From positions 32,001-96,000 of the IMG/VR virus record IMGVR_UViG_3300025154_000056: a DNA stretch of 64,000 bases; one strand, 5' to 3'. Below are positions 36,935-63,817 of the stretch, in pieces. The first letter of the stretch is position 1; each line of letters opens with the position of its first letter. The position numbers and the translations under genes were made by a program. This stretch comes from a virus. Lineage: Duplodnaviria; Caudoviricetes. The notes beneath the pieces are model-generated. The model ran no database searches. It saw only the letters and a program-made list of their open reading frames with translations, and was not told the DNA's origin.

Positions 36935-38299
36935 ATGAAATTCAGGCTACTCAAAAAGCGCAGACGTAACCCTGCGTACTTCATCAGGAAAACGCGAGAG
37001 GCAGACGCCCTCGTCGCAGAGAAGCTGGTGTTCACGGACCCCATGTACTTTGCGAAGATGAATCGTGGGTTGCCTATTGGTGACGAAGACGGTGTGATCA
37101 AGCTGTACCGCGAGGAGGAAGGTCTGTACGTAATTCCTCGCAATCTATACGCAGACACCAACTGGTATCAGCCCACAGGTATGTCTCACGAGAGCAAGAT
37201 TACCTTACGCGACTACCAACAGAAGGCATCAGAGAGCCTCATGGCTAACCGAGGAGATAAGATCCTGTGTTTGGCATGCGGTAAAGGCAAAACAGTCGTT
37301 GCTATTGATGCAGCTTGCCGTGGTGCTCGGCTACCTATGCTGGTGGTAGTGCACACCAAAGCTCTGTTGTCACAGTGGGTCGAGCGCATCAAGGAACATG
37401 CTGGTGTCTCTGAAGATGACATAGGTATGCTCCACAGAGATAGAGCTGATTGGTATGGGAAGAAGTTCGTGGTGGCTATGTTGCACACGCTGGTTCAGCG
37501 TCAAGACACATACCCAACTGAGCTGTATGACTATTTCAACTTGGTTGTATTTGACGAATGTCACAGATTAGCAGCCCACTGGTTTTCTGATGTGTGCTGG
37601 CAGTTTGGGTGCGAGCGTTGGGGACTCACCGCTACTCCAGAGAGAGATGATAAGCTTGAATTTGTGTTCAAGTATCATCTAGGACCTATCTGCCACACAG
37701 ACACGGTTCAGGATCTGCGACCTACGATGTACTTCGTGCACACAGGCATAGACGACAAGGACGAGCGCGTGGTCCTACGTAAGCAGAGAGATGGTAGAGT
37801 ATCTCTTCCGCTACTGGTGACTTCTCTAGCTAACCACAGTGGTCGCAACGCAATCATCAACTCGTTTGTGCGTCGAGCCATCAACAAAGACAGAACTGCT
37901 TTAGTGTTGGGCGAACGGGTAGCAAGCCTCCAGTACTTGATGGGCACCCTGCAGCACGAATCAAAGTCGTTGTTCTTGGGTGGTATGAAGGAGGCAGAAG
38001 CATCAGAAGCCCTGAAGGCGCAAGTGGTGTACGCGACGCAGCAGATGGCTAAGGAAGGGCTCGACAGGCCCGCATTCGACACGCTCATTATCGCGCACCC
38101 ATTCACAGGCAAGGGTAGGCTGAAGCAGACTGGCGGGCGCATCCTCAGGTCCAGAGAAGGCAAACAACACCCAGTCATTTTGGTACTGCAGGATGACCTA
38201 GGAGTCAGTAAGGCCATGTGCAGCATCATGCGTCGGCACGCAGAGTCGTTCAGGTGGAGAGTCAAGCACGTGGACTCGAACGGTAAGAGGGTTCGATGA
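36935..38299 (+). CDS. Superfamily 2 DEAD/DEAH-box helicase
   Basis: LRDYQ, ACGKGKT, DECH, LTATPER, EGLD, QTGGRILR; GGAGG RBS before ATG 36935. Confidence 0.93.
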   Translation: MKFRLLKKRRRNPAYFIRKTREADALVAEKLVFTDPMYFAKMNRGLPIGDEDGVIKLYREEEGLYVIPRNLYADTNWYQPTGMSHESKITLRDYQQKASESLMANRGDKILCLACGKGKTVVAIDAACRGARLPMLVVVHTKALLSQWVERIKEHAGVSEDDIGMLHRDRADWYGKKFVVAMLHTLVQRQDTYPTELYDYFNLVVFDECHRLAAHWFSDVCWQFGCERWGLTATPERDDKLEFVFKYHLGPICHTDTVQDLRPTMYFVHTGIDDKDERVVLRKQRDGRVSLPLLVTSLANHSGRNAIINSFVRRAINKDRTALVLGERVASLQYLMGTLQHESKSLFLGGMKEAEASEALKAQVVYATQQMAKEGLDRPAFDTLIIAHPFTGKGRLKQTGGRILRSREGKQHPVILVLQDDLGVSKAMCSIMRRHAESFRWRVKHVDSNGKRVR

Positions 38300-38718
38300 T
38301 CAAGTTCAAGAAGAAGATTAGGGATGTTGAGGGTTACGACCCTAAGAAGCGCACGAAGCCGGTCATGCATACCGTGGAGAGATCCGGTAGAGTGTTCCAG
38401 ATCGGGAATGAAGACATTGAATTGTTCCCGATAGGTGTGCTGGCTGAGGCGTTGGATCGTAGTGCTCACACAATCAAGCTTCTGGAATTGAAGGGCGAGT
38501 TTCCTAAGCCCATGTTCCGTGTGGCTGGCTCTAGGACCAAGCGTTGGTATTCAGCAGCTCAGGTTATCAACCTGCATCGTTTGATGTACCTCAAGAATGG
38601 CGGCAGGAAGTACTTCCAAGATAGAGAGCTGTATGAACTCTGGACTAAAGAAGTGAAAGAGTTGTTCTACAAAAGAACTGTGGTGATTGACGAACAAGGC
38701 AACAGAACGGAGGGCTAA
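38296..38718 (+). CDS. MerR-like helix-turn-helix DNA-binding protein
   Basis: IGVLAEALDRSAHTIKLLE..G.FP.P.......RWYS. Confidence 0.7.
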   Translation: MIKFKKKIRDVEGYDPKKRTKPVMHTVERSGRVFQIGNEDIELFPIGVLAEALDRSAHTIKLLELKGEFPKPMFRVAGSRTKRWYSAAQVINLHRLMYLKNGGRKYFQDRELYELWTKEVKELFYKRTVVIDEQGNRTEG

Positions 38719-39038
38719 TGCGGACACTGATATTCGCGTACACACTCAGGATCGCTGACCAGCGTCTGAAGTACGATGTAGTCCCAGGAATTCCAGGTGT
38801 GGAAGACATGACCGTGATGGACCTTACGCTGTGGTTTCAACGGGTTGTGCCACGCCTCAAGGAAAGTATTCCCAAGGCAGTTGTTGGGGTAGACTCTAAC
38901 GACATGAATCTGGTGGAGACTCGATTCGTCGAGTCAGTCAGTCAGACAATTGATAAGTCCTTCTCTCCGGCTCGTGTAGTGGTTATGCGAGCAGAGGCTG
39001 TGGCGAACATGATCAACAACGGAGTTACTGACCCATGA
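38718..39038 (+). CDS. Hypothetical protein
   Basis: GGAGG RBS; coupled on both sides. Confidence 0.6.
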   Translation: MRTLIFAYTLRIADQRLKYDVVPGIPGVEDMTVMDLTLWFQRVVPRLKESIPKAVVGVDSNDMNLVETRFVESVSQTIDKSFSPARVVVMRAEAVANMINNGVTDP

Positions 39039-39478
39039 CACACTCATTCAAGTCCAGCATTATGCAGCAGCTCGGTCGTGCCCGACCCATTCTCCGAAAT
39101 GACCCAGTGACAATGGGAGACCTCGACGACCTGTCCCTTGTGATTGAGGAAGTCTACACCAAGAACTTTACTGTGGTGGAGAACACGTTGAACAAGTTCC
39201 ACGAGGGAATCCTGCGGATGGAGCGTACCACCAATGGTATGTGGAATACGATGAATGTCATTGTGTCCCTCATGCTGGATAACGATCAAATCAAAGAGAA
39301 TGAAATCGTCAACAAGGGTAAGCAGCTGTATGTGGAGGCGAGGGAGAACTTCGACAAGTTGCGAGAGGCGACACGGAAGGGGGTCAAGCCTCCGCCCCTC
39401 AAGCGTACCGCTCTTGAGGCCATCATCGCTACCATCTCCGAAGTGAACAAGGGAGAGTCCGAAGGGAAGCCATCATGA
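39035..39478 (+). CDS. Hypothetical helical protein
   Basis: ATGA overlaps; GGAG RBS. Confidence 0.6.
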   Translation: MTHSFKSSIMQQLGRARPILRNDPVTMGDLDDLSLVIEEVYTKNFTVVENTLNKFHEGILRMERTTNGMWNTMNVIVSLMLDNDQIKENEIVNKGKQLYVEARENFDKLREATRKGVKPPPLKRTALEAIIATISEVNKGESEGKPS

Positions 39479-39840
39479 GATTGAAGACCAAGACACCGAA
39501 GCGCTCTACCATCGAAGCAGAGAGTACGATCACCGACCGTCGTTCAAAGGAGGTGGTGCACACGAAGGCCACCAAGAAGCTCGGTAAGCCCATCAAGCCC
39601 GTCGAGGGTAAGGTGGTGGGCTACGTGAGGTTCGGGGACAACCTCAAGATTACGAAGAAGTACCAGAGCACGGGCACAGAGATCACAGCAGAGGTCCCAT
39701 TCATGATGACACCAGGGGACCTGAGCGAACTTCCTAGTCAGATTGAGGAAGTGATGGAAGTCATTGACGACGTACTGGCTGAGCACCTCAAGGACCTGAA
39801 GGAGGCGCTATCCCAGCTGGCGAAAGAGGATGGGAGATGA
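39475..39840 (+). CDS. Hypothetical protein
   Basis: ATGA overlaps; phage-like codon usage. Confidence 0.6.
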   Translation: MRLKTKTPKRSTIEAESTITDRRSKEVVHTKATKKLGKPIKPVEGKVVGYVRFGDNLKITKKYQSTGTEITAEVPFMMTPGDLSELPSQIEEVMEVIDDVLAEHLKDLKEALSQLAKEDGR

Positions 39841-40313
39841 TGATATTTCGTCTTCGAATTCACAAGCCTCAAAAAGCATTGCTTATGTCGCAGCGCTTTT
39901 TCGGTACTCCGGTTCCTACCAAGAAGATCATGTACGCTACCCAAGCATACGAAGACTACAAGACAGGTAGCGAGCCCGTAGGGGCCGTACCTCTGTTGGG
40001 TATGTACCTGGCCCTGTACGCCCGTAGGTTTGGCTTCCAGTGGGTAGGCACGTTGAAGCTTATTGAAGAAGAGCTAAAGGTGTTCATGCAGTTGGTGAGG
40101 CAGTTCGAGGCTAGAGCCTTTGACATCGTTCGAATTCTGATGCTGCATAAAGACCTAGCGTGGGTGACTACATCTCACACTAGGTTCCTATCCAATACAG
40201 ACAACGTGATCAAGTACATCGTACCTCTGGTCAAGACTAGGCGACGCGGAGAGCAGAGCGAGTTCACTGCTGAGCGAGCTGCTGCCCGAAGTTCAAAGAG
40301 AGTCACACTATGA
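39837..40313 (+). CDS. Hypothetical protein, possible replication initiator partner of the loader
   Basis: Position directly before DnaC-like ATPase; function inferred from position only. Confidence 0.5.
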   Translation: MMIFRLRIHKPQKALLMSQRFFGTPVPTKKIMYATQAYEDYKTGSEPVGAVPLLGMYLALYARRFGFQWVGTLKLIEEELKVFMQLVRQFEARAFDIVRILMLHKDLAWVTTSHTRFLSNTDNVIKYIVPLVKTRRRGEQSEFTAERAAARSSKRVTL

Positions 40314-40903
40314 GGATGCGTGTCCCCCAGAGGGTAGGCACAGCCCGCATCAAGCAATTGGATGATGACCAATTCGACATGGTGCTCGACTACGCGAAGA
40401 ACCTCCATGCACGACGCGGCAAGGGCACCGGGTTGCTGTTGTCCGGCCCCCCAGGTATTGGCAAGAGTTGGGCTCTGGCTGCCCTCACCCGGTATGCTGT
40501 AGTGCGGAGCGAGAAGGAAGGCTACAGGCTCGACTACGAGTACATCAGCGCACCGGAGGTCTTCGAGAACTTCGGCGTCGTTGGTGGGGGCGCCGAGCAG
40601 GACGAGTGGCGTGGTCAGTCCTGGCGTAGGACGTTCGACACCGTACCCTGGTTGGTGATCGATGACCTCGGCAAGGAGTACCGGGGAGGGAAGCTTGCTG
40701 AGCAGGTACCGTACCTGCTGGGTAGGATTGTGCGAAAACGAACTATGAATATGCTGGTTACCCACATAAGTACAAACCTACCTATTGCCACCGAGACCGA
40801 TGACAGTGTGAGTAGCATCTACGGAGAATCAATCATCTCTCTTTTGAAGGACGCCACTGAGATGTTCGAGATTCAGGGGGACGACCGGAGGGGAGATGGT
40901 TGA
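40310..40903 (+). CDS. DnaC/IstB-like AAA+ helicase loader
   Basis: GLLLSGPPGIGKS, LVIDDLGKE, ISTNL. Confidence 0.88.
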   Translation: MRMRVPQRVGTARIKQLDDDQFDMVLDYAKNLHARRGKGTGLLLSGPPGIGKSWALAALTRYAVVRSEKEGYRLDYEYISAPEVFENFGVVGGGAEQDEWRGQSWRRTFDTVPWLVIDDLGKEYRGGKLAEQVPYLLGRIVRKRTMNMLVTHISTNLPIATETDDSVSSIYGESIISLLKDATEMFEIQGDDRRGDG

Positions 40904-42188
40904 TTATCATGAAGAATGGGCGGTACTCAATAAGGTACTGCTAACCAAGGACCTGAAGTCTGTCGTCAATGCTGGCGTAGACGAAGCTTTCTTCGAGGGA
41001 ATAGATACTAAAGAAGTCTTTGAATTCATAACAGACAGCTACGCTAGGTTCCAGGCTGTGCCATCTAGGGTCACAGTCAAACAAGAGTTCCCGGCGTTTG
41101 TGTCAGTACCTACCAAGGAGGACACACTACCCATCCTGATAGATAGGCTGCGGGAGAAGGCTATCTACCGTGGCATGCGTGAGGTCCAGAAGAAGGCGGC
41201 GAACCGAGCGAAGGTCAAGCCCTCTGCTGGGCTGACTGTCATGCAGAGTGGGGTAATCAACCTCAGCAATAGATTCACTAGAGCCACAGCCAGGGATGCG
41301 CGCAAAGAGACTGGTAACATTCTAGCGAAGTACGAACGCATCAAGGAGTCTGGAGGCATCATTGGAATCCCAACCCCCTGGGACGAGCTGACCAGAGTCA
41401 CCAAAGGTGCACAGCCTGGCGTAGTGAAGTGCTACTACGGCCACACCGGCACAATGAAGACGTTTCTTTTGCTGCATGAAGCTAACCACTGCCACAAAGA
41501 GTGGGGCCAGATTCCTCTATTCCTCACCAAGGAGATGTCTGTCGAGCAGATCCTGTGGCGCTACGCTGGTATGCTCGCTAAGGTTGATTACGAGAAGCTC
41601 AATTCAGGCGCCCTTAGCGAAGAGGATGAGAAGAAGTTCAAGGAGCACCTCGAACAGCTGGTCGACGATCCACCATTCTGGATTGACACTATCGTTCAGA
41701 CAGGGCCTGGTGCTTTGCTTGAGCTGCAAGCGAAGATTGACCAGTACGGACCAGACCGCGTGTTTCTGGATGGTATGTACTTCCTCGCTGACAACCCATC
41801 CGACTGGGGACAGATGGCTGTCATCAACAACGGAATCAAGCAGTGTTCATTACGTAACAACATTGCGTTCGATGTCAGTACGCAGCGTAACTACGACAAC
41901 ACCAAAAAGCAATCCACTGATTCGTCAGACGCAGGAGACGTCGGCTACGGTAAGTCTCTAGCGCAGGCAGTGGACTACCTGATTCGTGTGGTTCGGGAGA
42001 AGCAACACATTGAAAACAAGGAGCTGCTATTAGTACTTCCGAAGGCACGTGAATCCCTCGCGTCAACACTAGTGCTACACGCGAAGCCTTGTGCTGACTT
42101 CTCACAAAAAGCTGTCATCTCTATTGGTGGTGAAGACTACGGTGACTCCACTGAGGGGGATGGCGACGAAGACGAAGAGATACTGTAG
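40896..42188 (+). CDS. dnaB: DnaB-like replicative helicase
   Basis: GIPTPWDEL...T.G, variant Walker A GHTGTMKT, FLTKEM, VFLDGMY, STQ, KARE. Confidence 0.85.
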   Translation: MVDYHEEWAVLNKVLLTKDLKSVVNAGVDEAFFEGIDTKEVFEFITDSYARFQAVPSRVTVKQEFPAFVSVPTKEDTLPILIDRLREKAIYRGMREVQKKAANRAKVKPSAGLTVMQSGVINLSNRFTRATARDARKETGNILAKYERIKESGGIIGIPTPWDELTRVTKGAQPGVVKCYYGHTGTMKTFLLLHEANHCHKEWGQIPLFLTKEMSVEQILWRYAGMLAKVDYEKLNSGALSEEDEKKFKEHLEQLVDDPPFWIDTIVQTGPGALLELQAKIDQYGPDRVFLDGMYFLADNPSDWGQMAVINNGIKQCSLRNNIAFDVSTQRNYDNTKKQSTDSSDAGDVGYGKSLAQAVDYLIRVVREKQHIENKELLLVLPKARESLASTLVLHAKPCADFSQKAVISIGGEDYGDSTEGDGDEDEEIL

Positions 42189-42196
42189 GACCAACC

Positions 42197-43431: not shown

Positions 43432-43434
43432 ACT
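43406..43434 (+). promoter_or_regulatory. Sigma70-like promoter upstream of SSB gene
   Basis: TTGACG-17-TAAACT. Confidence 0.55.
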
Positions 43435-43490: not shown

Positions 43491-44612
43491 ATGCGACGCG
43501 GACTGGCTGCTGTAAAGCAGGTCAAAGAAGAGATGGATCAGAATGCTGGGGCGAATAGCTACGTCCCTCATTTCACTCTGGAGGACGGTGAGTCAGCCAT
43601 CGTTGGACTCACAGGAGACAGGGACCAAGAACCTGTAATCCTCGAAGAGCACAGTATCAAGCAAGGGAACAACTTCACCACCATCATCTGTAGTGCGGAC
43701 CGACCCAAGTTCAAGGGGAAGTGCGTTTCTTGCCACACGAATGCGAGTGGCAATAGGCAGGTGAACCGGACCAACAATAGAGCCGCGTTCAATGTGTACG
43801 ATTTCCGACTCGTGCATCCTGTGAAGAACAAGGAGAAGTCGAAGAAGTACGGGCGTGACATTTTTGACAAGGTTCTTTGCACAGGAGAGGTGAAGTGCAA
43901 GCGCTGTCGGAACGGGAAGGAACCAGAGTACTGGGGTGAGAAGCAGTGGAAGCTGTCTATGACCTGGGCGGCTATCTTGGCTGCTCTCAATGACGATGAG
44001 CGTGCTAGGTGCAAGTGTGGCGGCAAGATCACCGTTACTGGGTACCTGGACCCAGAAAACGACAAGGTCTACAAGCATGTCGATGAGGATATGGACACGG
44101 ACGGGTTTGAGGAGATCCTCGAATGCTCCAAGTGCGAGGAGCCTGACCCGTACACCATCTTTGACTTTCCAATCAAGGTGAGGCGTAGCGGTAAAAACAA
44201 GTCCACTGCGTATGCAATCAGTATTGTCAAGGACGACCCTGAGATACAAGAGATCTTCGACGCCCTAAAGGAAGATGGTGAATTGAAGCCCGCTGACTTG
44301 GAGAAGATCAACTCTCCCCTGTCTCTGCAAAAACAAGCTGAGCTTATCGGCGTGGTCAACCCCTACAGCAGCAAGTCCGACCGCTCGGAAGACTATGACG
44401 ATGACGAGGAGGAGGATGATTACGAAGAGACCGAGGATGAAGACGACGACATGATGGAGGACGAAGATGAAGATGAAGATGATGAGGATGATGACGATGA
44501 CGATGACGAAGATGATCCTCCTCGCCGCCCTGCTACTCGTCGAGGTACGAAGAAGAAGGCTGCTAAGAAGCCCACCAAAGGTGCGAAGCGTAGCCTCAGA
44601 CTGAAGAAGTGA
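43491..44612 (+). CDS. gp32-like single-stranded DNA-binding protein with Zn-binding Cys clusters, acidic tract and basic tail
   Basis: F.LEDGESA.V, C...CVSC, FNVYD, IKVRRSG...T.Y; long D/E tract; between primase and polymerase (alternative TTG start 43485). Confidence 0.75.
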   Translation: MRRGLAAVKQVKEEMDQNAGANSYVPHFTLEDGESAIVGLTGDRDQEPVILEEHSIKQGNNFTTIICSADRPKFKGKCVSCHTNASGNRQVNRTNNRAAFNVYDFRLVHPVKNKEKSKKYGRDIFDKVLCTGEVKCKRCRNGKEPEYWGEKQWKLSMTWAAILAALNDDERARCKCGGKITVTGYLDPENDKVYKHVDEDMDTDGFEEILECSKCEEPDPYTIFDFPIKVRRSGKNKSTAYAISIVKDDPEIQEIFDALKEDGELKPADLEKINSPLSLQKQAELIGVVNPYSSKSDRSEDYDDDEEEDDYEETEDEDDDMMEDEDEDEDDEDDDDDDDEDDPPRRPATRRGTKKKAAKKPTKGAKRSLRLKK

Positions 44613-45251: not shown

Positions 45252-45252
45252 A

Positions 45253-45735: not shown

Positions 45736-46325
45736 GACAATTTAATTTATTGTATGTGGATCCACCATGGCAGTACCAAAGTAAGCGCACTGGCGGGTCC
45801 ATGTCTAGCGGCTCTGACCAGCAGTACGAAACAATATCCACAAAGGAATTGTTGACTACGTCCATAGAGCCCCTCTGCATGGACGATGCATACCTGTGTC
45901 TGTGGGCTACAGTGCCCATGATGGAGGAAGCTTTCGCCTTGATGCGTCAATGGGACTTTACTTATAAGACGAAGCTTAGCTGGCGGAAAAAGCAAGCTAG
46001 ACTAGGTATGGGTTACTACTTTCGAGGAGAGGTGGAAGACCTACTGCTAGGAGTGCGCGGCAAGGTGAAGGCCCCCAGGGTCCAGGAACGAAACTGGATA
46101 GACCCACCCCCGACCAAGCATTCTCGGAAGCCAGAAGAGATGCGTCTGTTGGTGGAGAAGGCAGCCATCAACTCTTTCGGCAAGAGCAAGGTACGTGCGC
46201 TGGAGATGTTCGCCACACACAAAGAGGGTAAAGGAGTATTGGATTGGTCTTATTGGGGTAACACAATAGAGTCAGACATAGTGTTCGATATATTGAAGCG
46301 TAAGCGCTTCCTACTGAGGGCGTAA
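45732..46325 (+). CDS. MT-A70 family adenine methyltransferase
   Basis: YVDPPW, LCLWAT, W.F.Y...W.K, GMGYYFRG..E.LL.G.RG, HSRKP, LEMFA. Confidence 0.92.
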   Translation: MRQFNLLYVDPPWQYQSKRTGGSMSSGSDQQYETISTKELLTTSIEPLCMDDAYLCLWATVPMMEEAFALMRQWDFTYKTKLSWRKKQARLGMGYYFRGEVEDLLLGVRGKVKAPRVQERNWIDPPPTKHSRKPEEMRLLVEKAAINSFGKSKVRALEMFATHKEGKGVLDWSYWGNTIESDIVFDILKRKRFLLRA

Positions 46326-48460
46326 TGCGGCTCAGGCTTATCTCTCCTCCGATGACTACCGCCATTGTGAAGTGGCAGCAGGGCGAGCTTGACTTCTCCA
46401 CGCCCAAAAGCGTGGTGACGTACAGGCTGCGCAAGTCAGCGAAGTCTACGTTCCTATCCTTTGAGCAGAAGCACCCACACTGCATCGTAGCTGACACACC
46501 AAAGAAGGTGGCAAAAGCACTTGCTCTAATGGAGCGAGTACCACTCCTCGGGTTCGACGTTGAGACCATTGGCTCAGATGTCGGTGAGGAGCACCCAATT
46601 GGTAAGGCTAAGGTGCTGTCACTCCAGTTGGCTGGTCGAGTCGACGGGGTGATGTGGGCTGTCTTCGTACCCAACTGGGGCAAGTACGCAGGCACTCTGC
46701 GGAAATTCAAGGCGCTCCTTGAGGGCGACAAAGACAAAACTGCCCACAACGGTAAGTACGACATCCACGCTTTGTTGAACCACGGCGTCTCAGTCGATGG
46801 GTTCCTCCACGATACGCTAATTACTGACAAGCTATTCGCAACACAAGAGATGCTGCATGGCTTGAAGGAATGCATGCGTAGGTACTTCGGTAGGGATGCA
46901 AAGGATTACAAGGAAGTCTTCAAGACTCCGTACATCAAGAAGAACGGTCAGCCAGGCAAGCGCATGGTGCTCCAGCCGCTTGAAGAAGTCATCAAGACTC
47001 AGGCTGGCATCTGGAAGCTGATCGACTACGCCATAAAAGACCCAATCTATTCTGTAGAGCTAGCTGAATACCTACAGAAGAAGCTTGAGAAGGTGGAGTG
47101 GAGCAAGCGTGGATCCTACTGGGACTACTACGTAGGATTCGAAGAGCCTTTCATTCGTGTGTTGGTAGATGTCGAGCGCAACGGCATGTACATCGACCAG
47201 CCCAAACTAAATGCCATTCGTGTAGAGATAGAGGAGGCGCTCACCAAAGCTGAGTGGGCGTTTATGAAGGCGTGTGTTTCTGCTGGAGTCCCAGCAGAGT
47301 TCATGGAGTCCTTCAACCTCAACTCGCAAAAGCAACTGGCTGCATTGTTCCAGAAGCTTGGTGCGAAGATTGTTGACCTCACACCCACTGGGCTACCCAA
47401 AGTCGATGAGGCGTCTCTCAAGAAGATCAAGGGTGGCAAGAAGGTCAAGAAGGTCATCAAAGCACTGCTAGAGTGCAGACGACTGCTCAAGAGCCTCACC
47501 ACCTACGTTGACCCGCTGCTCAAGTACAGCAAAGAGTATGGCGGGCGAGTACACACTGATCTGAAGCATGCTGGCACAGCCACCTGGCGGCTGTCGTCTG
47601 CAAATCCAAACTTCCAAAATGTGCCCACAGGGGCAAAGGATACGTACTCCATACGTGGGTGCATCATCGCTGAATTCTCAACCCACGTGATCGCAGACAT
47701 CGACTTGTCACAGATTGAGATGCGTCTAATGGCGCACTTCAGTCGAGACAAGCGGATGCTGCAAGCTATCAGAGACGGTTGGGATCTCCACTCCCTCGCG
47801 GCGTGGAACCTAGCACAGCACGGACTCTTCCCGGAGATCAAGGCGCACTTCGGTGCTAGAGAGCTAAGCAAAGAGGTCCTGGCTGAGCTGGCTGAGGTGT
47901 TCCCAGACCAGCGTAAGAAAGCAAAGACTATCAATTTCGGCGTGGGTTACGGTATGGGGCCGACCCGCTACGCAGTGATGACTGGGTCCTCCATGGACGA
48001 GGGACGCAGGGCCATTCAAGCGTTCTTCAAGGGCTTCCCAGGGCTCAAATACAACATCGAGAATGTACGCAAGTACGCTCATGAGCACGGGCACATCCGT
48101 ACCCTGCTGCGTAAGTACGTTGGTATCCCGTTCATCAATCACCCCGATGAAGGGCTGCGCGCTGCTGGTGAGAGGCAGGCATACAACTACCTGATTCAAG
48201 GGAGTGCAGCAGAGCTACTCAAGATGAGTATGATTCTAATCCACAATGATGAGGTGCTGCGTGGTCTAGGTGTCAAGATGATCATGCAGATTCATGACGA
48301 GCTTCTGTTCGAGATGCCTCTGGCATCTATGGCTGAAGCTACGCCCATCATCGAGGACTACGTCAGCCACCCATACAGGTACTTCGGGATGAAAGACCTT
48401 CTGGTGGATACACCGGCTGACCTCGGCAGTGGCATTTCTTGGGCAGAAGCGAAGCACTGA
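46325..48460 (+). CDS. polA: Family A DNA polymerase with 3'-5' exonuclease
   Basis: FDVET, HNGKYD, YAIKD; RLSSANPNFQN; DLSQIEMR; KTINFGVGYG; QIHDELLFE. Confidence 0.96.
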   Translation: MRLRLISPPMTTAIVKWQQGELDFSTPKSVVTYRLRKSAKSTFLSFEQKHPHCIVADTPKKVAKALALMERVPLLGFDVETIGSDVGEEHPIGKAKVLSLQLAGRVDGVMWAVFVPNWGKYAGTLRKFKALLEGDKDKTAHNGKYDIHALLNHGVSVDGFLHDTLITDKLFATQEMLHGLKECMRRYFGRDAKDYKEVFKTPYIKKNGQPGKRMVLQPLEEVIKTQAGIWKLIDYAIKDPIYSVELAEYLQKKLEKVEWSKRGSYWDYYVGFEEPFIRVLVDVERNGMYIDQPKLNAIRVEIEEALTKAEWAFMKACVSAGVPAEFMESFNLNSQKQLAALFQKLGAKIVDLTPTGLPKVDEASLKKIKGGKKVKKVIKALLECRRLLKSLTTYVDPLLKYSKEYGGRVHTDLKHAGTATWRLSSANPNFQNVPTGAKDTYSIRGCIIAEFSTHVIADIDLSQIEMRLMAHFSRDKRMLQAIRDGWDLHSLAAWNLAQHGLFPEIKAHFGARELSKEVLAELAEVFPDQRKKAKTINFGVGYGMGPTRYAVMTGSSMDEGRRAIQAFFKGFPGLKYNIENVRKYAHEHGHIRTLLRKYVGIPFINHPDEGLRAAGERQAYNYLIQGSAAELLKMSMILIHNDEVLRGLGVKMIMQIHDELLFEMPLASMAEATPIIEDYVSHPYRYFGMKDLLVDTPADLGSGISWAEAKH

Positions 48461-50921: not shown

Positions 50922-51205
50922 TGGATATCGAAACCCCCAACCTCGTGATTGAAGACAACACCACAGCAGGACGAGTTGCAAATCAGCAGCGTGGTATTCC
51001 ATGGCGCGTGGTCAAGCCTGGGAACGTCTTCCCTAGTAGGCACGACCGGCTGAAGAGTGAAGCTATCGCCCGTAACGCCAGCCACCATGACCTCACCCTC
51101 AAGGAGGAGAGTCGAATCAACCGCAACGCTATTCGTAAGTATCGACAGGCTCGTAAGGCAGCTCGTCGAGCACTGCGCCTCGCTCACTTCCACGGTGGCG
51201 AATGA
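50921..51205 (+). CDS. Small Arg-rich hypothetical protein
   Basis: GAGGAG RBS; coupled on both sides. Confidence 0.55.
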   Translation: MDIETPNLVIEDNTTAGRVANQQRGIPWRVVKPGNVFPSRHDRLKSEAIARNASHHDLTLKEESRINRNAIRKYRQARKAARRALRLAHFHGGE

Positions 51206-52278
51206 AAGTCCGACTCACAGCAGAGCCATCCCCCGAGAAGAAGAGGGTGGCAGCTCTAAAGAAGCTTACTGTCGACATCAACAAGGCACTTGGGGTCGAA
51301 GGCAAGCTAGTATTGGGCAGTGACCATGCTGGTATAATCAGGGTTCCTATTGGGGTTCTGGGTCTCGACGTGATCACAGGTGGTGGGCTACCACGAGGCA
51401 ACATGGTCGAGCTGTACGGAGCAGAGTCCTCAGGTAAGACCCTGTTCACCATGAATATGGTGAAAGCTATTCAGAAGCTCGGAGAACCAGTCGTGTGGCT
51501 CAAGGGTGAGGGATTCGACAAGCCATGGATGGAAAAGAATGGCGTTGATTTGAGCCTCTTGTACCTAGCTGAGGCCAAGGCAGGAGACAAGGCACTGGAG
51601 GCAGTACTCACTGCCCTGGAGAGCGGCTTGGTTGGTGGTGTCGTGGTCGACTCTGTACAGAGCCTTGCTACCTCCCGAGAGATGTCCGACTCAGTAGAGC
51701 AGGAGAGCTATGGAGGAGGCGGCTCGGGCCAGATGTGGGGCAGGGTCATGCGCAAAGCCTATGCGTACGCGAACAGCGGCAAGGCAGCGAACACATGCTT
51801 CATCACCATTTCACAGGTGCGGGAGGCTATCGGCAGCTTCGGCAAACACAAGCCCGCCCCCAAGCCCACCGGCATCCGGTCCATTAGGCATTGGAAAGCC
51901 ATCTCTTTGGAGTGCAAAGCAAGCGAACCGTTCTTCATCAATGAAAAGATTGATGAACGCAAGTTGATGTACGCTCGTGAGTTCGTAGTCAGGTGTAGGA
52001 AAAACAAGACTTCAATTCCAGAGCGCTCAGCCACCATCCGGTACTACTTCCGAAAGCATGAAGGAGTACCGTTTGGTGTGGACCACGCAGACCAGATTTT
52101 CAGGTACGCAAAAGCGTATGATCTGCTGGAGGTCAGCGGCTCCTGGTACAACATCGGAGAAGACTTCAAAGCTCAAGGCAAGGAACCCTTCCTGGAGGAG
52201 TTGAGGAAGCACCCAGCATATATGAAGAAACTCTACAACCAGATACTCAAGCTCGTAGACAAGGAGGCAAACGGGTGA
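51202..52278 (+). CDS. recA: RecA-like recombinase
   Basis: GGLPRG..VELYGAESSGKT, VVVDSV, ISQVR, KNKT, GSWY, QGKE. Confidence 0.95.
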   Translation: MKVRLTAEPSPEKKRVAALKKLTVDINKALGVEGKLVLGSDHAGIIRVPIGVLGLDVITGGGLPRGNMVELYGAESSGKTLFTMNMVKAIQKLGEPVVWLKGEGFDKPWMEKNGVDLSLLYLAEAKAGDKALEAVLTALESGLVGGVVVDSVQSLATSREMSDSVEQESYGGGGSGQMWGRVMRKAYAYANSGKAANTCFITISQVREAIGSFGKHKPAPKPTGIRSIRHWKAISLECKASEPFFINEKIDERKLMYAREFVVRCRKNKTSIPERSATIRYYFRKHEGVPFGVDHADQIFRYAKAYDLLEVSGSWYNIGEDFKAQGKEPFLEELRKHPAYMKKLYNQILKLVDKEANG

Positions 52279-52661: not shown

Positions 52662-52839
52662 ACTATTGGTGGAGTGTAAGACCACCGAAAAGGCTTCGTA
52701 CAGGCTATCGCTGGATACATTGAAGACCGCCGAGTTAGACGCTATAATGGCAGGCAAACTCGGAGTGCTACAGCTGGAGATGCAGGGTAGGAAGTACGCT
52801 GTACTGAGCTGGGACGAATTCGAAAGGTTGATAAAGTGA
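52501..52839 (+). CDS. Small PD-(D/E)XK nuclease (resolvase-like)
   Basis: E...A..L.G.R.PGSG....KGDV....LVECK. Confidence 0.8.
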   Translation: MRKPKLLSPKRPSTERIRKSRKQEQDLASRLSGGSRVPGSGNQWHSKGDVKSDELLVECKTTEKASYRLSLDTLKTAELDAIMAGKLGVLQLEMQGRKYAVLSWDEFERLIK

Positions 52840-53630
52840 AACGACTTAGCGACTTGATCAGAGGAGAGCGCCCCCGCCTTGGCGCCTCCCGACGAAAGAA
52901 GGATGCCCCTGAAGCGGTCGCATCCTTGTTTGATGTTGAGAAGTTCATTGGGCTGGACCACCAAGAAGAGCCACCGAACCTGATCGAGGTCATGCAAGAC
53001 TGTCAGACGCAGATGAATGCGGAGTTGAACTTCTTCCGCCCGTCTGGCTTGTTTAGGTGCGAAAGAGCCGCAGTGTTTTCGTACAGGAATGCAAAGAAGA
53101 GTAGGGCCCAGACGGACCCTACTCTCATGCGTATCTTGGACGAGGGTACTGCAGTGCACACAGTAGTGCAGAGGTACTTGGGGAATGACAGACACAAGTA
53201 CTACTTTGTGCCAGAGGCACGGAGCTACACCAAGATTGGTCCTTATGCATTCAGCGGAAGCTGCGATGGCATTCTCATCCGGCGTAGTGACAATTACCGT
53301 TGGGCAATTGAGATCAAAACCATCTCCGAGAAGGGCTTCGACAAGCTAGGTCGCAAAGCGAAGCGAGAGCACGAGCGGCAGGCGGTCCTATACGCCCTTG
53401 CTCACAAGGTTTGGTGGGTCTCCTTCCTCTACTGGAATAAGAGCAATGGAACTGTCAAGACCTTCAACTTCAAAGCGGATCAGAAGACGGTACTAGAGTG
53501 TACCGCTCGCATGGATCATCTCTACGCTTTCGTCAAGGCAAACAAGCTGCCTCAATTCGACGCCAGGCAGTGCAACCCAGGCATGTGCCCTCACGTTGAG
53601 ATCTGCAAAAAGAACGGAGGTAATCCGTGA
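52836..53630 (+). CDS. Cas4/AddB-like PD-(D/E)XK exonuclease with four Cys
   Basis: PS....C.R, GTAVH, G..DG, IEIKT, Q..LY, C....CP...IC. Confidence 0.85.
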   Translation: MKRLSDLIRGERPRLGASRRKKDAPEAVASLFDVEKFIGLDHQEEPPNLIEVMQDCQTQMNAELNFFRPSGLFRCERAAVFSYRNAKKSRAQTDPTLMRILDEGTAVHTVVQRYLGNDRHKYYFVPEARSYTKIGPYAFSGSCDGILIRRSDNYRWAIEIKTISEKGFDKLGRKAKREHERQAVLYALAHKVWWVSFLYWNKSNGTVKTFNFKADQKTVLECTARMDHLYAFVKANKLPQFDARQCNPGMCPHVEICKKNGGNP

Positions 53631-54731: not shown

Positions 54732-55207
54732 TGGCTCGAAAGAGCGCTATTTACCAGTGTCCTGTTTGTGGTCGCGGGATTGCGGCTACAACACAGGACC
54801 CTGTCGTTTCTAGTAGTCAAACAGGAAGATTCTATTACCACAAGAAGTGCTACACAGCACTGTGGAGATACCTCCGTGAAGATCCGTCTTACCGAGAAAC
54901 AAAACCCATCACAAAAGGTGACCTCTCGAAAGCCCTCAAAGCTGTCGCGAAAAAGACTCGATTCGATTCGCGAAAAAGCAGCGCAGGCCCATCTAGAGGT
55001 CACAAAAGGATTCGCCTCGTTGCAGGTGCGGGTACCCCCCAGGCCAGCACTCAAAAACGGGCAGCTACTCGAACCTCTGCTACCAGAAGATCTGACGGTG
55101 CTAAACGATGTCCTGTTGGGTCGTCTGTTTTCAGAGTTCGCCTGCATGGCACAGTACGTTCAACTCCATCTAGCAGCGAAGTCCGTCAACACGGCGATAA
55201 AGCGTAG
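54731..55207 (+). CDS. Zn-finger-like hypothetical protein overlapping next gene
   Basis: CPVCG...HKKC; coupled to upstream gene. Confidence 0.45.
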   Translation: MARKSAIYQCPVCGRGIAATTQDPVVSSSQTGRFYYHKKCYTALWRYLREDPSYRETKPITKGDLSKALKAVAKKTRFDSRKSSAGPSRGHKRIRLVAGAGTPQASTQKRAATRTSATRRSDGAKRCPVGSSVFRVRLHGTVRSTPSSSEVRQHGDKA

Positions 55208-60590: not shown

Positions 60591-61100
60591 ATGGCAGTGA
60601 AGAAGACAGCGAAGAAGAGCACGAAGAAGACGGCCACCAAGAAGACCACCAAGAAGGCAGCGCCCAAGACGGAGAAGAAGGCGACCAAGAAGGTGGCTGA
60701 GCCCAAGAAGGCGACCAAGAAGGCAGCAGCGGAGCCCAAGAAGGCCACGAAGAAGGCGACCAAGAAGATCACCCCGAAGAAGCCCGCTGAGGTCACCAAG
60801 AAGGCAGCAACGAAGAAGGAACCCAAGGAGAAGGCTGCCCGCAAGGGGCGCCCGAGTGCCATGCTGGCGTGGTCCGACGTCAGCGACAAGGCAAAGAAGC
60901 TGATCACCAAGGTGGAAGGCTTCGAGGAGCAGATCGAGCAGCTCAAGAAGGACATCTCTGACACGCTGACGAACCTCATGGATACAATGGACGCTGCTTC
61001 TTTTGACCATCCGAAGCGCGGTCCGCTGTCTATCATGGTGCGGGGGGATCTGACTTACTGGCGTGCGAAGCCGGTTGGCCGTGCTGGGGGTAAGAAGTAA
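60591..61100 (+). CDS. Histone H1-like protein (KKAT/KKAA repeats) with small C-terminal folded domain
   Basis: AAGGAG RBS; about 85 aa of K/A/T/P/E repeats, then coiled coil and short beta segment. Confidence 0.8.
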   Translation: MAVKKTAKKSTKKTATKKTTKKAAPKTEKKATKKVAEPKKATKKAAAEPKKATKKATKKITPKKPAEVTKKAATKKEPKEKAARKGRPSAMLAWSDVSDKAKKLITKVEGFEEQIEQLKKDISDTLTNLMDTMDAASFDHPKRGPLSIMVRGDLTYWRAKPVGRAGGKK

Positions 61101-61113
61101 GGGGGCTTGGTGG

Positions 61114-61383
61114 ATGATCTTCCGGCTCAAGATCACAAAGAGGCTTCCGGGTCACTGGGTAAAAGCCTCTAGCACTTGCCGGTTCGAAAGTATCGCCACC
61201 AAGTTTGAGAGGGGGAAAGTCGCATCTCTTTTGTATGAGCATGTTGTACAGATAAGAGAGCGGCGACGCGGTGGTATCTGGGTTCGACTAATTGAACCTA
61301 CTAGTTCGTGGGACAGAGAGTTACTTGATGTCAGCTTTGAAGATGCTGGTATCACAATAGAAAGGGATGAAGCACATGGCTAA
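61114..61383 (+). CDS. Hypothetical protein starting MIFRLKI
   Basis: Fills gap; overlaps start of next gene. Confidence 0.55.
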   Translation: MIFRLKITKRLPGHWVKASSTCRFESIATKFERGKVASLLYEHVVQIRERRRGGIWVRLIEPTSSWDRELLDVSFEDAGITIERDEAHG

Positions 61384-62401
61384 CAACAACGGTAAATACG
61401 AAGACATGCCTCTCTCCGAGCTTCGCAAGCTGGCGAAGAGCCTGAAGGTCAATCCTTCTGGAAAGGGTCGCAACATGCTCATTCGAGCAATTCAGAAGGC
61501 TCAATTGGCGAAGGAAGGGAAGTCGACGGCGGCAGACCCCGGTGCGTCGAAGCGCGCAGCTACCAAGAAGCCCGCAGCGACGAAGGCTACTGCCACCAAG
61601 AAGCCCGCTGCCAAGGCAAAGAAGGAAGAGCCCGAAGAGGAAGAGGACGACCTTGCCACCCTCGTGAAGAAGCTGACGAAGGAGGTCGCCAAGCTCGGCA
61701 AGCGGCTGGATGCGCTGGAGGAGGCAGAGCCTGAGACCGAAGAGGAAGAGGAGGAGCCCGAGGAGGAGGACGCAGAGGAAGCCGCCGAGGACGAAGAGGA
61801 AGAGGAAGAAGAGACCGAGGAGGAGGAAGAAGAAGAGACTGAGGACGAAGAAGAGGAGGAGGAGGAGTCCGAGGAAGAGGCTGAGGAAGAGGAGTCCGAG
61901 GAGGAGGAAGAGGACGAGCCCGAAGAGGAGGAGGAAGAAGAGACGGTTGATATCAGCCTCGCTGAGATTGAATCCGCGAAGCTCGACCGGCTCACCGAAG
62001 TCGCGAACTTGATCAACACCAATGGTGGCAAGATCAAGCTGACAAAGAAGACTGAGGTATTGCGTCAGTCGATCGTCAACTTCCTGCAGGAGAATGCGGA
62101 GAAGGTGGTCGAGGATGCCCCCGCGTCGAAGGAAACTCCCGCTGACAACAGCGGAGAGGTGTACGAGGTGGGCGACAAGGTGGAGGTGATGTTCCTGGAC
62201 GAAGACGAGGCAGAGGTCTGGGAAGAAGGCACCGTGGTGAAGATCAAGAAGAACGTCGTGGTCGTCGACATCGGTGACGGGGAAGTCGCCGACGCTCCGT
62301 TCGACTCGGTTCGTCGCCCGGCGAAGAAGAAGGCTACCAAGAAGCCCGCAGCGAAGCCTGCGGCTACGAAGAAGGCCACGAAGAAGACCACCAAGAAGTG
62401 A
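61376..62401 (+). CDS. Multidomain acidic/basic protein: Rho-N/HeH-like, KKPAA repeats, coiled coil, Glu tract, Tudor/SH3-like barrel
   Basis: MPLSELRKLAKSL.V...G.....LI.AI; long E tract; YEVGDKVEV...W.EGTVVKI....VVV...DG......SVRRP. Confidence 0.75.
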   Translation: MANNNGKYEDMPLSELRKLAKSLKVNPSGKGRNMLIRAIQKAQLAKEGKSTAADPGASKRAATKKPAATKATATKKPAAKAKKEEPEEEEDDLATLVKKLTKEVAKLGKRLDALEEAEPETEEEEEEPEEEDAEEAAEDEEEEEEETEEEEEEETEDEEEEEEESEEEAEEEESEEEEEDEPEEEEEEETVDISLAEIESAKLDRLTEVANLINTNGGKIKLTKKTEVLRQSIVNFLQENAEKVVEDAPASKETPADNSGEVYEVGDKVEVMFLDEDEAEVWEEGTVVKIKKNVVVVDIGDGEVADAPFDSVRRPAKKKATKKPAAKPAATKKATKKTTKK

Positions 62402-62888: not shown

Positions 62889-63124
62889 AAGCAGCAGCAC
62901 ATACGACACACGAAGTGACGTTGACCTACAAGATAGTAGCCAACGGTAGGTACTGCTCACGTAAATGCAAGCACTTGAATAGTTATAGTGAGTGTGGGCT
63001 ATTCAGGCACAATGACAAGTGGTCGTCGGCTCGAAGCCTTAGGCAATTAGGTGGCAGCAGCATTCGCTGCACACGGTGCCTCTCTGCCACCCTAACTGCT
63101 GCGGACAAGGCGGTGGCAAAATGA
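62885..63124 (+). CDS. Small Cys-rich hypothetical protein
   Basis: CSRKC..L...CGLF...RCTRC; AAGGAGG RBS. Confidence 0.55.
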   Translation: MKAAAHTTHEVTLTYKIVANGRYCSRKCKHLNSYSECGLFRHNDKWSSARSLRQLGGSSIRCTRCLSATLTAADKAVAK

Positions 63125-63744
63125 AAGCAGAGTTGGCTAGGCCACATGCCCGTGGCATCGACACAGTGCAGGTACTCAGCACCAGTAACTGTCAGTGGCT
63201 CGTGCAGAACCATTATGACTTCGTGATTAGGTACCTGTACGGTCGGTACGCCGTATCCGATCACGAGATTGACTGCATCCTGAATGCTGGTCTGGCGTTG
63301 ATGCTATGCACACCGTCTAGGTCCCCAGGATGGAGGGCCGATGGGCTAGGTAACTCCGACGGTTTTCAAGCAGTCGCGTCATTGACGTCACTGACTGTTC
63401 CGAAGAGCGTCACCACATGGATTGATCTAGAGGGCTGCATAAGCCCAGCTGTTACCACCAGTGATTGGATTGATACATTCAGCCTAGCGATCCGCAATGC
63501 AGGCCACGAGGCTGGTCTGTACGTTGGTGCAAATCCTGGTGGCCTCGATTCTGAGACGTTGTGGAAACGACCGCATGTCACACGCTATTGGCGCTCTGGG
63601 TCTCGCGTGCCTGAGCCAGCTAACAGAGGTTGGTGTATGCAGCAGCTGCGGCCCCTCGACGTCAAGCTCGGCCCGATACACGTGGACCACGACGTAATTG
63701 AGACTGACTTCAAAGGCGGTCTACCGACCTGGATAGTGAAATGA
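63121..63744 (+). CDS. DUF1906/GH25-like glycoside hydrolase (putative peptidoglycan hydrolase)
   Basis: GIDT, FVIRYL, E.......GL, WIDLEG, AGLYVG, YW, Q, VDHD. Confidence 0.75.
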   Translation: MKAELARPHARGIDTVQVLSTSNCQWLVQNHYDFVIRYLYGRYAVSDHEIDCILNAGLALMLCTPSRSPGWRADGLGNSDGFQAVASLTSLTVPKSVTTWIDLEGCISPAVTTSDWIDTFSLAIRNAGHEAGLYVGANPGGLDSETLWKRPHVTRYWRSGSRVPEPANRGWCMQQLRPLDVKLGPIHVDHDVIETDFKGGLPTWIVK

Positions 63745-63745
63745 C

Positions 63746-63817
63746 ATGAAGATTCGTCTGGTACTGAATCCGTATGTAGGCAATGTGGTGAATAAGAAAG
63801 TCTGGAGCCACATATGA
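63746..63817 (+). CDS. 23-aa micropeptide MKIRLVLNPYVGNVVNKKVWSHI
   Basis: Manual translation; starts 1 nt after upstream stop and ends in an ATGA overlap with the next gene. Confidence 0.45.
   Translation: MKIRLVLNPYVGNVVNKKVWSHI

Follow-up and report, generated by a model that had tools for sequence, protein, structure and literature searches.

A Five-Residue N-Terminal Tag on Replication and Recombination Proteins of an Uncultured Groundwater Phage: A Possible Docking Peptide

A five-residue tag (Met, Lys/Ile/Arg, hydrophobic, Arg, Leu) heads seven or eight unrelated proteins of the uncultured groundwater phage IMGVR_UViG_3300025154_000056, and may serve to dock them on a partner. The record comprises 104,340 nt (contig completeness 82%). 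The window, which is the whole stretch of DNA analyzed here, covers its bases 32001–96000 (64,000 nt).

Occurrence and Composition of the Tag

The pattern M[KRI][FLVIM]RL was read from 8 of the 5592 ATG, GTG, and TTG codons on the + strand of the whole 104-kb contig, and all eight were gene starts. On the − strand it was found at 1 of the 5378 start-type codons, and truly internal [KRI][FLVIM]RL strings occurred only about six times in about 32,500 residues. With a pattern defined post hoc from the same data, seven tagged genes were seen versus 0.22 expected from the position-specific N-terminal frequencies (P = 4 × 10−9); this null was conservative, since the frequencies kept the tagged genes in. 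None of the 20,000 column shuffles gave at least seven tagged genes. Furthermore, the tag was present on none of the 35 structural genes, compared with 6 of 45 genes in the replication half (P = 0.03), in agreement with the earlier remark that the virion genes between 1 and 36 kb were free of it.

Arg4 and Leu5 were invariant in the eight tags, and the residues after R-L (the fifth/sixth positions) varied (L, R, I, T, T, K, V, and S). Six tags had a Met-basic-hydrophobic start (Met-Lys-hydrophobic in five, Met-Arg-hydrophobic in one) and two started with MIF. A Pro lay within residues 6–13 in all eight, versus 39% of all proteins. In tag codons 2–5, the pairwise identity was 0.64, 0.85, and 0.30 at the first, second, and third codon positions, respectively, and that of the flanking DNA was 0.25–0.28. 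As the third positions and flanks were random, the likeness is one of peptide, not of DNA, which points to selection at the protein level.

It is highly improbable that there is no signal at all, and that the starts reflect a Lys/Arg-rich N-terminal bias, misplaced start codons, or a nucleotide-level element. Bacterial genes often have Lys in second place and a hydrophobic residue in third, and there is less certainty about the micro-ORF and the GTG start. Against this stand the counts and shuffles, the restriction of the + strand occurrences to gene starts, the random third positions and flanks, and the preservation of the peptide at the aligned start in orthologues; in addition, the RecA gene had no alternative start codon upstream of the conserved helix. 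The sequence-only reading, a note made from the letters of this DNA before the present analysis, had itself named the K/R-rich bias as a rival, and the counts did not bear it out. The shuffled controls, the split between structural and non-structural genes, and the comparison of protein with nucleotide conservation, which it had suggested, likewise came out in its favor.

Properties of the Tagged Proteins

The seven tags of the window are listed in Table 1. They had been pointed out before as nearly identical starts on unrelated replication genes, and all seven translated as described (MKFRLL for the SF2 helicase) and at the same positions. The eighth was located outside the window, at contig position 7624, where MKFRLSKPSK tops about 240 low-complexity basic residues of a 421-aa protein.

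Table 1. Tagged genes, looser cases, and candidate partners (positions in the window).
Feature	N-terminal sequence	Position	Strand	Starts in related phages	Remarks
SF2 helicase, tag and leader	MKFRLLKKRRRNP	36935..36973	+	MLIRLKRR, MKLRFRV, MRIRYHK	gene 36935-38299, 454 aa; XPB/UvsW/RadD-like fold
157-aa protein, tag	MIFRLRIHKP	39840..39869	+	MRWKVKV, MRWKFRRPK, MALKIKFKR	gene 39840-40313; upstream of DnaC-like ATPase
PolA, tag	MRLRLISPP	46325..46351	+	MRFRL, MIFRV, MRVRV, MRWRL, MRIKY, MKWRL, MGLRWRL	family A DNA polymerase gene 46325-48460
RecA, tag	MKVRLTAEPSP	51202..51234	+	MAAKLRLK (70% identity), MVKLRV, MAAKIKIT; remaining ones MAAKKK or MPKKK	gene 51202-52278; ahead of conserved N-terminal helix
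188-aa protein, tag	V/MKIRLTEKQNP (GTG start)	54876..54908	+	MKRLKIKK, VRFKFRLPK, MPKLKTPK	gene 54876-55442; possibly UvsY-like
89-aa protein, tag	MIFRLKITKRLP (MIFRLKI start)	61114..61149	+	MRWKLRVKK, MTVFRLKF	gene 61114-61383; between H1-like gene and acidic HeH gene
23-aa micro-ORF	MKIRLVLNP	63746..63817	+		fills intergenic gap exactly
DnaC/IstB-like ATPase	MRMRVPQRV	40310..40903	+		looser case
121-aa protein	MRLKTKTPK	39475..39840	+	MPKIIKR, MKRLAKVR, MPKLKAGK	looser case; short basic N-termini kept in the family
PD-(D/E)XK nuclease	VKRLSDLIR (GTG start)	52836..53630	+	MIKIKG, MLSIKLKK, MSRLRWKL (tagged leader)	looser case, overlooked in the sequence-only reading
gp32-type single-strand DNA-binding protein (SSB)	MRRGLAAVK	43491..44612	+		candidate tag partner; zinc-rich core
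DnaB helicase		40896..42188	+		untagged; second candidate partner; acidic C-terminal tail with hydrophobic tip DEDEEIL
Acidic scaffold-like protein 61376		61376..62401	+		third candidate partner

The tag lay ahead of the conserved fold, as had been noticed from the sequence for RecA and PolA: the RecA domain begins at residue 19 (leader of about 12 residues), the exonuclease domain of PolA at residue 56 (leader of about 50 residues), and the ResIII domain of the helicase at residue 88. In the AF2 model of the helicase, for which Foldseek matched XPB and T4 UvsW, residues 1–13 fell below a pLDDT of 50 and residue 14 opened the first strand. The 157-aa protein, which starts at the second ATG of an ATGATGA overlap, matched no family in the Pfam and PHROG searches, and these gave no hit for the 188-aa protein either. 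For the latter, a weak UvsY lead was obtained in a protein atlas (15% of the members of one cluster). The ribosome site of the micro-ORF was weak and none of the relatives examined had a clear counterpart, and it is uncertain whether the micro-ORF is a real gene.

The Tag in Related Phages

The related phages are uncultured as well. Their proteins of the same families carried M-basic-hydrophobic-basic-hydrophobic starts (Table 1) even at a RecA identity of 39–52%, and N-termini of this looser class were over-represented 2–4 times in six genomes. The conservation that the sequence-only reading had made a touchstone was thus found. The same result went against its suggestion that the tag had been acquired repeatedly; since distant relatives are tagged on the same families, the tags are old and inherited per family, and not recently spread. 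This genome has done no more than sharpen the old family tags to R-L. DnaB, primase, SpoVS, the 56100 family, and FolE were never tagged in this phage or in the relatives examined, and ligase and the methyltransferases had no tag in this phage, which upheld the earlier statement on DnaB, primase, and ligase.

The looser cases behaved differently from one another. In the DnaC/IstB-like family R-V-P-x-R-F was kept, and what precedes it was tag-like in some of the relatives but not in others. The PD-(D/E)XK nuclease had about 45 residues ahead of its conserved domain. The MerR-like start MIKFKK, which had also been proposed, was rejected as a tag, because its orthologues align from residue 2 and it belongs to the conserved fold. 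C-terminal look-alikes, earlier pointed out as similar strings, were not enriched (7 versus 3.25 expected, P = 0.05, and five relatives without excess).

An explanation that we consider rather unlikely is that of a non-specific affinity arm, a basic and partly hydrophobic N-terminal tail that would concentrate enzymes on DNA or anionic membrane with no dedicated protein partner. The leaders are basic, long Lys-rich N-terminal stretches are found on the RecA of relatives, and every tagged protein of known function binds DNA. Moreover, H1-like KKAT/AKK tails are common in the clade (60591, both ends of 61376, the SSB tail, and the 421-aa protein, among many). However, charge would account neither for the invariance of Leu5 nor for a hydrophobic residue at position 3 and the strict placement at Met1 in all eight tags; DnaB, primase, ligase, and the methyltransferases are DNA enzymes without the tag, and the Lys-rich repeats elsewhere differ in composition and have no alternating hydrophobics.

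Possible Docking Partners

M-[K/I/R]-hydrophobic-R-L is plausibly, and in our view still tentatively, a docking peptide on a flexible tether for one shared partner. The tag would top a flexible, Pro-bounded, mostly basic leader. Its carriers would be workers on single-stranded or SSB-coated DNA, namely PolA, RecA, and the XPB/UvsW-like helicase, joined by the neighbor of the helicase loader, the possibly UvsY-like protein and, in relatives, the PD-(D/E)XK nuclease. If a beta strand is formed, one face of it would be hydrophobic (Met1, residue 3, and Leu5) and the other basic (residue 2 and Arg4), and all tagged proteins might grip one shared partner through this strand. The likeliest partners would be the gp32-type SSB and DnaB, through C-terminal tails that are acidic and carry a hydrophobic tip.

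Several results are in agreement with docking. The invariance of Arg4 and Leu5 suggests more than charge, namely a defined contact. The tag is not part of the conserved folds, it is disordered in the helicase model, and the leaders differ greatly in length, from RecA through PolA to the 421-aa protein. The tagged set resembles the gp32 clients gp59, UvsX, UvsY, and Dda, and the untagged ligase and methyltransferases act on duplex DNA. As the 89-aa, 157-aa, and 421-aa proteins have no assigned function, the name "SSB clients" fits the tagged set as a whole only tentatively.

The acidic tract of the SSB comprises about 45 residues and is followed by a basic tail ending in KRSLRLKK, and the protein's own N-terminus is a predicted helix. 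For its AF2 model (pLDDT 76), the six best Foldseek PDB matches were all RB69/T4 gp32, with probabilities of 0.82–1.00 and modest scores (best E 2.6 × 10−3, TM 0.3–0.5). The Cys and His residues were conserved, and the model is consistent, at these modest scores, with a gp32 core fold with zinc ligands. The acidic tract was present in the SSBs of this phage and the relatives examined. The SSB tails of several relatives were acidic with a hydrophobic tip (DDDIDF, DDEVF, and EDLPY); in this phage the tip is absent and a basic end is found instead. The DnaB tail (DEDEEIL in this phage) was kept in the relatives G001–G004 (EDGLLA, EEGGIL, DDEDESI, and DEDGGIL, respectively) and was absent from the long G005 call, and the DnaB of L126 ends in EEDSGIAA.

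The proposed pairing of tag and acidic tail has no solved precedent, which counts against docking. To our knowledge, it is folded surfaces, never a five-residue peptide, that recognize the acidic tails of T4, T7, and E. coli. The tipless SSB of this phage also argues against docking on the SSB and DnaB tails, and so does the PolA of some relatives, which has no clear tag though the SSB and DnaB tails there are the same.

Docking to the acidic protein 61376 instead, by its poly-Glu tract or its Agenet/Tudor-like barrel, would bring the tagged enzymes together on DNA; we consider it improbable. The protein combines a HeH/SAP-like N-terminus, a poly-Glu tract of about 75 residues, and a weak Agenet/Tudor-like C-terminal barrel, an architecture kept in three relatives. 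The tagged small gene immediately upstream overlaps its start and has tagged counterparts in two relatives. However, the Agenet match is below the Pfam cut-off (E = 0.002, 19 bits versus 27), the middle gene in G004 and G001 starts differently and is untagged, and nothing ties 61376 functionally to RecA or PolA. A PDB sequence search with 61376 gave no match.

Comparison with Known Systems

[quoted passage not shown] Like this hub, the SSB here has a gp32 fold match and an acidic region, and the kinds of tagged protein are those of the T4 clients. In T4, however, the clients bind by folded surfaces with no common peptide, whereas a portable peptide on the clients is proposed here. The LAST motif is similar in principle only, as a basic pentapeptide at the extreme N-terminus used for docking; it belongs to the SSB and lacks alternating hydrophobics, whereas the present tags are on other proteins and have another sequence.

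The T7 replisome is tethered by the acidic C-terminal tails of gp2.5 and gp4 on basic patches of gp5. The tail of gp2.5 binds a basic patch of the polymerase, and the gp5 patch (K587, K589, R590, and R591) is inside the folded polymerase (bioRxiv 10.1101/2025.03.07.642097). The likeness lies in the acidic, hydrophobic-tipped tails on the SSB of several relatives in the clade and on DnaB, and in the basic element on a family A polymerase. Unlike the tag, the T7 element is a surface patch, neither a terminal peptide nor common to recombination proteins.

Clamp-binding peptides are the best-known short terminal peptides common to unrelated replication and repair proteins and directed to one hub. 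Their consensus is QL[SD]LF or QLxLxL, or (S/T)LDFLF at a terminus, and the T4 gp45 tails and the PIP box also belong to this kind. The tag core x-hydrophobic-R-L, with hydrophobics at 2 and 4, can be aligned with Q-L-x-L. A clamp-binding motif was nevertheless rejected, as the tags have no Gln and no conserved fifth aromatic residue or Leu, and are strongly basic. Clamp clients do not usually include RecA or mediator proteins. PF00712 (DNA_pol3_beta) and PF02916 (DNA_PPF) had no match with E up to 1 on this 82%-complete contig, a search that divergent clamps may escape.

It is improbable that the tag is read by a host AAA+ unfoldase or protease as a ClpX-type N-degron, for a timed turnover or remodeling of replication proteins like that of lambda O or MuA. 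The degron classes are N-motif-1 (lambda O) and N-motif-2 (PMC12723719), of which the latter reads NH2-Met-basic-hydrophobic-hydrophobic-hydrophobic and includes DadA (MRVVI), IscR (MRLTS), and IscS (MKLPI) (PMC9775585). The present tags are likewise unstructured, strictly N-terminal, and mostly Met-basic-hydrophobic, and among phage replication proteins lambda O is a precedent, with a ClpX tag at its N-terminus (PMC12723719). However, the N-motif-2 consensus was rejected, since all eight tags have Arg at position 4, where N-motif-2 is hydrophobic, and two have MIF starts. The relatives have Ala-Ala, Pro, or Thr after Met, so that the N-terminal residue is not kept. Moreover, the tag is on stable core enzymes, and destroying the main polymerase, recombinase, and helicase would be of no obvious gain for a lytic phage.

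The interpretation given in the sequence-only reading was partly supported overall. From the shared peptide we infer, as it did, one common receptor, be it a hub, a compartment, or a degradation system. Since related phages keep a similar peptide on these families, the tag is most likely a common docking tag on replication and recombination proteins, in which the recognition element would be portable and carried by the clients.

Occurrence and Position of the N-Terminal Tag

Every ATG, GTG, and TTG codon of the whole contig was tested for the tag M-[KRI]-[FLVIM]-R-L. On the + strand, which holds all credible genes of the phage contig, 8 of the 5592 start-type codons matched, and all eight stood at gene starts; the − strand gave one match among 5378. 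Inside proteins, the tag tetrapeptide occurred about six times in 32,500 residues. The null was deliberately generous, using the position-specific residue frequencies of the phage's own N-termini with the tagged genes counted in. Under this null, 0.22 tagged genes were expected and seven were seen (P = 4 × 10−9), while none of 20,000 column shuffles of the N-termini reached seven. Moreover, FRL was the commonest triplet at residues 3–5 of the phage proteins, and RL at residues 4–5 had ten times its frequency elsewhere. The seven best starts of the sequence-only reading were reproduced by translation. Its remark that virion genes lack the tag also held: the tag was present in 0 of 35 structural genes and in 6 of the 45 genes of the replication half. 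It is very unlikely that chance or mis-annotation produced this pattern; the tag signal is real and testable.

True start codons might have lain downstream of the tags. However, RecA offered no other start codon ahead of its conserved N-terminal helix, and the orthologues of the tagged proteins aligned from the same start. For PolA, RecA, and the 157-aa protein, the tagged start overlapped the stop codon of the gene before it, as is usual for coupled genes. The Pfam domains started at residue 19 in RecA, at 56 (exonuclease) in PolA, and at 88 in the helicase, whose fold is XPB/UvsW/RadD-like. In the AF2 model of the helicase (six orthologues), residues 1–13 had a pLDDT below 50 and the first strand began at residue 14. 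A Pro followed the tag within residues 6–13 in all eight cases, compared with 39% of all proteins. The leader between tag and body was shortest in RecA (about 12 residues) and longest in the 421-aa protein, where it comprised about 240 basic, low-complexity residues. In its build, the tag is a short linear motif carried by a flexible tether. The tag had been described as appended to RecA and PolA, and it does lie ahead of both conserved folds. Nevertheless, RecA is little lengthened by it, since a variable stretch precedes the conserved helix in bacterial RecAs as well; this stretch was reshaped in sequence, with no new segment added.

The likeness resided in the peptide and not in the DNA. 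The mean pairwise identity of tag codons 2–5 was 0.64, 0.85, and 0.30 at codon positions 1, 2, and 3, respectively, and that of the 30 nt on each side was 0.25–0.28, which is random. Even the two MIFRL genes differed at the third positions of codons 2 to 7. Because third positions and flanks were random, a start cassette spread by recombination was ruled out, as was a promoter or RNA element at the tagged starts.

Relatives of the Phage and Conservation of the Tag

The virus record is linear, 104,340 nt long, and an estimated 82% complete; the window covers its bases 32001–96000. The phage DNA was found in groundwater metagenomes of two studies; the contigs of the second yielded nothing but identical pieces of this phage at low coverage, from which near-strain variation was not readable. 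The major capsid protein shared about 51% identity with its counterpart in Bacillus phage BCD7 and about 42% with those of Streptomyces (BRock-like) and Bacteroides phages. Among cultured phages, RecA and the helicase had no relative above about 30% identity, the SSB had none by tblastn, and the PolA–RecA region gave no blastn match. This comparison suggests a mosaic ancestry, the capsid having cultured relatives versus a region of RecA, helicase, and SSB without close ones. Furthermore, RecA as a single query found no match among viral contigs, DnaB found none among metagenome contigs, and the RecA alignment matched only ordinary bacterial RecA (26–32% identity) among metagenome contigs. The nearest RecA, on a 1.7-kb contig, was 70% identical, and RecA homologues of 39–70% identity defined a clade of uncultured phages. 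Ten relatives were compared, with 20-kb neighbourhoods or whole contigs examined.

In these relatives, a Met-basic-hydrophobic-basic-hydrophobic N-terminus was the common pattern of the tagged families. PolA started with MRFRL, MIFRV, MRVRV, MRWRL, or MRIKY (MKWRL, MGLRWRL, and MWTVRLKK in further database homologues), and the helicase with MLIRLKRR, MKLRFRV, or MRIRYHK. The N-termini were MRWKVKV, MRWKFRRPK, and MALKIKFKR in the 157-aa family; MKRLKIKK, VRFKFRLPK, and MPKLK in the 188-aa family; MRWKLRVKK and MTVFRLKF in the 89-aa family; MKFVLKKTPK in the 421-aa family; and MIKIKG and MLSIKLKK in a PD-(D/E)XK nuclease family. The RecA relatives had MAAKLRLK, MVKLRV, or MAAKIKIT and were otherwise Lys-rich. 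This looser class was two to four times as frequent at N-termini as predicted from the internal rate in each of the six genomes that were complete or large. The same families are tagged in relatives, and the N-termini show this excess; the tags are therefore of long standing, passed down with each family and kept under selection, in disagreement with the earlier proposal of repeated acquisition. The studied genome has narrowed them to R-L at positions 4–5. Spellings were genome-specific, with Leu5 in 8 of 8 tags of the studied phage, Phe5 in three of four in the related genome G004, and Trp3 in three of five in G002; concerted evolution was not claimed, as the counts are too small.

The tag was never present in DnaB, primase, SpoVS, the 56100 family, or FolE of the relatives compared; its absence from DnaB, primase, and ligase had been noted before. 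Two of the looser cases were not sustained as tags: the MerR-like protein aligned with its orthologues from residue 2, and in the DnaC-like start, conservation covered R-V-P-x-R-F. Likewise, the C-terminal look-alikes on SSB, MT-A70, and 60135 were not more frequent than chance and were dropped from the system for lack of enrichment.

Tag-Linked Genes and Their Neighbourhood

The 421-aa protein had no Pfam family, and its C-terminal domain was kept in three relatives. The micro-ORF may encode a genuine tag-only peptide or may be due to chance; its conservation was not seen in relatives. The small protein of the three-gene unit was tagged in three genomes, and had another start and no tag in two. 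The acidic protein 61376 of the same unit combined a coiled coil and a poly-Glu tract with a SAP/HeH-like N-terminus and a weak Agenet-like barrel.

Several other genes were recorded. In every relative examined, the SpoVS-like gene and its 235-aa neighbour sat after the possibly UvsY-like gene. For the 7-deazaguanine pathway set, PTPS (QueD-like) and radical SAM (QueE-like) entries stood at matching places in the relatives' gene tables, and two QueC-like PP-loop genes lay upstream of the window. HNH genes related to that before the methyltransferase gene were scattered through the relatives.

Coordinates of tagged genes and other features (window positions unless marked contig)
Feature	Position	Remarks
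421-aa protein, tagged	contig 7624–8889	Outside the window; starts MKFRLSKPSK; tag tips a low-complexity region (about 240 residues) rich in Lys, Gly, Ala, and Thr
7-Deazaguanine pathway set	58107–60092; contig 25738–27148	
Major capsid protein	10789–11778	
Region of RecA, helicase, and SSB	36935–52278	
Helicase, tagged	36935 (start)	
157-aa protein, tagged	39840 (start)	
DnaB C-terminus	42140–42188	
SSB	43491–44612	
HNH endonuclease	45253–45735	Pfam HNH_3, E 1e-7; directly before the MT-A70-like methyltransferase gene
PolA, tagged	46325 (start)	
RecA, tagged	51202 (start)	
188-aa protein, tagged	54876 (start)	Possibly UvsY-like
SpoVS-like and 235-aa proteins	55439–56807	SpoVS-like: PHROG 35646, E 5e-17; 235-aa: conserved, no known family, acidic end
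FolE-like gene	59436	Identified by eye
Three-gene unit	60591–62401	H1-like KKAT-repeat protein, small protein, and acidic protein 61376; conserved in relatives
89-aa protein, tagged	61114 (start)	
Micro-ORF, 23 aa, tagged	63746–63817	Little more than the tag; begins 2 nt after the stop codon before it and overlaps the start that follows

Function and Candidate Partners of the Tag

Arg4 and Leu5 were invariant, residue 3 was always hydrophobic, and the motif always ran from Met1, which favours a defined contact with a protein over an effect of charge alone. If it formed a beta strand, the tag would have Met1, residue 3, and Leu5 along one side and two basic residues along the opposite side. An arm binding DNA or membrane non-specifically would be in agreement with the basic leaders and the clade's many H1-like tails, but the invariant Leu speaks against it, and it is unlikely. 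A ClpX-type degron is less probable: the Met-basic-hydrophobic start and the precedent of lambda O fit, whereas Arg4, the choice of stable core enzymes, and the variable N-terminal residue in relatives do not. A phage sliding clamp was set aside as the receptor, no sliding clamp family having been detected by Pfam on the 82% complete contig. N-terminal deazaguanylation by a phage QueC paralogue was rejected: in the known reaction, Met is first removed from a Gly/Ser-rich N-terminus and Gly2 is then modified (bioRxiv 10.1101/2025.04.06.647259), whereas the tags have Lys, Ile, or Arg at residue 2 and retain Met.

Every tagged protein whose function is known works on single-stranded or SSB-covered DNA; the substrate of the untagged ligase and methyltransferases is duplex DNA. 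On the preferred reading, the tag may be a common docking peptide, tentatively with the acidic tails of SSB and DnaB as its likeliest partners; about half of the weight given to this reading rests on those two tails. The SSB call was weak from sequence. Its AF2 model was confident (pLDDT 76), and the six best PDB matches were RB69 and T4 gp32, with modest scores (best E 2.6e-3, TM 0.3–0.5). The protein contained many conserved Cys and His residues (several zinc sites) and a 45-residue Asp/Glu tract followed by a Lys/Arg tail ending in KRSLRLKK. The SSB on the related contig L002 had the same acidic-then-basic order, ending in KKRLLRRRR, and several other orthologues had a classic acidic tail with a hydrophobic tip. 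The RL-containing tail might dock in cis on the SSB's own core; in the model it was disordered (pLDDT about 40). The DnaB C-terminus and its orthologues in G001–G004 and L126 had an acidic tail with a hydrophobic tip (DEDEEIL, DEDGGIL, EDGLLA), which was absent from the long gene call in G005. This tail recalls that of T7 gp4, which holds the polymerase. In previous studies, the C-terminal domain of T4 gp32 recruited gp59, UvsX, UvsY, and Dda (PMC11551737), its extreme N-terminal Lys-Arg-Lys-Ser-Thr was itself a docking peptide (PMC12893549), and the acidic tail of T7 gp2.5 anchored on a basic patch of the polymerase (bioRxiv 10.1101/2025.03.07.642097).

Docking to the acidic protein 61376 instead is an appealing idea but improbable. 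The protein is encoded after a tagged small gene and together with the H1-like protein, its architecture is conserved, and it showed a sub-threshold Agenet match; however, it has no link to RecA or PolA. More doubtful still is a reading of the tag as an address code, with the Agenet/Tudor-like barrel or poly-Glu tract of 61376 as its reader. PolA, RecA, the helicase, and the mediators would then be brought together by this scaffold in a chromatin-like replication/recombination factory on phage DNA, with the micro-ORF peptide as a competitor tuning occupancy.

A few hub contacts, such as sliding clamps and SSB tails, hold replisomes and recombination machines together, and recruitment of many replication proteins to one hub by shared terminal peptides is a known principle (clamp-binding motifs, SSB tails). 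To our knowledge, no basic-hydrophobic N-terminal pentapeptide common to PolA, RecA, an SF2 helicase, and mediator-type proteins has been described, and a limited literature search on related systems found nothing comparable. The proposed role can easily be tested with peptides and point mutants. Since the 89-, 157-, and 421-aa proteins carry the tag, it could reveal unnamed members of the machine. A portable tag of five residues on polymerase, recombinase, helicase, and mediators would wire a replication machine in a new way.
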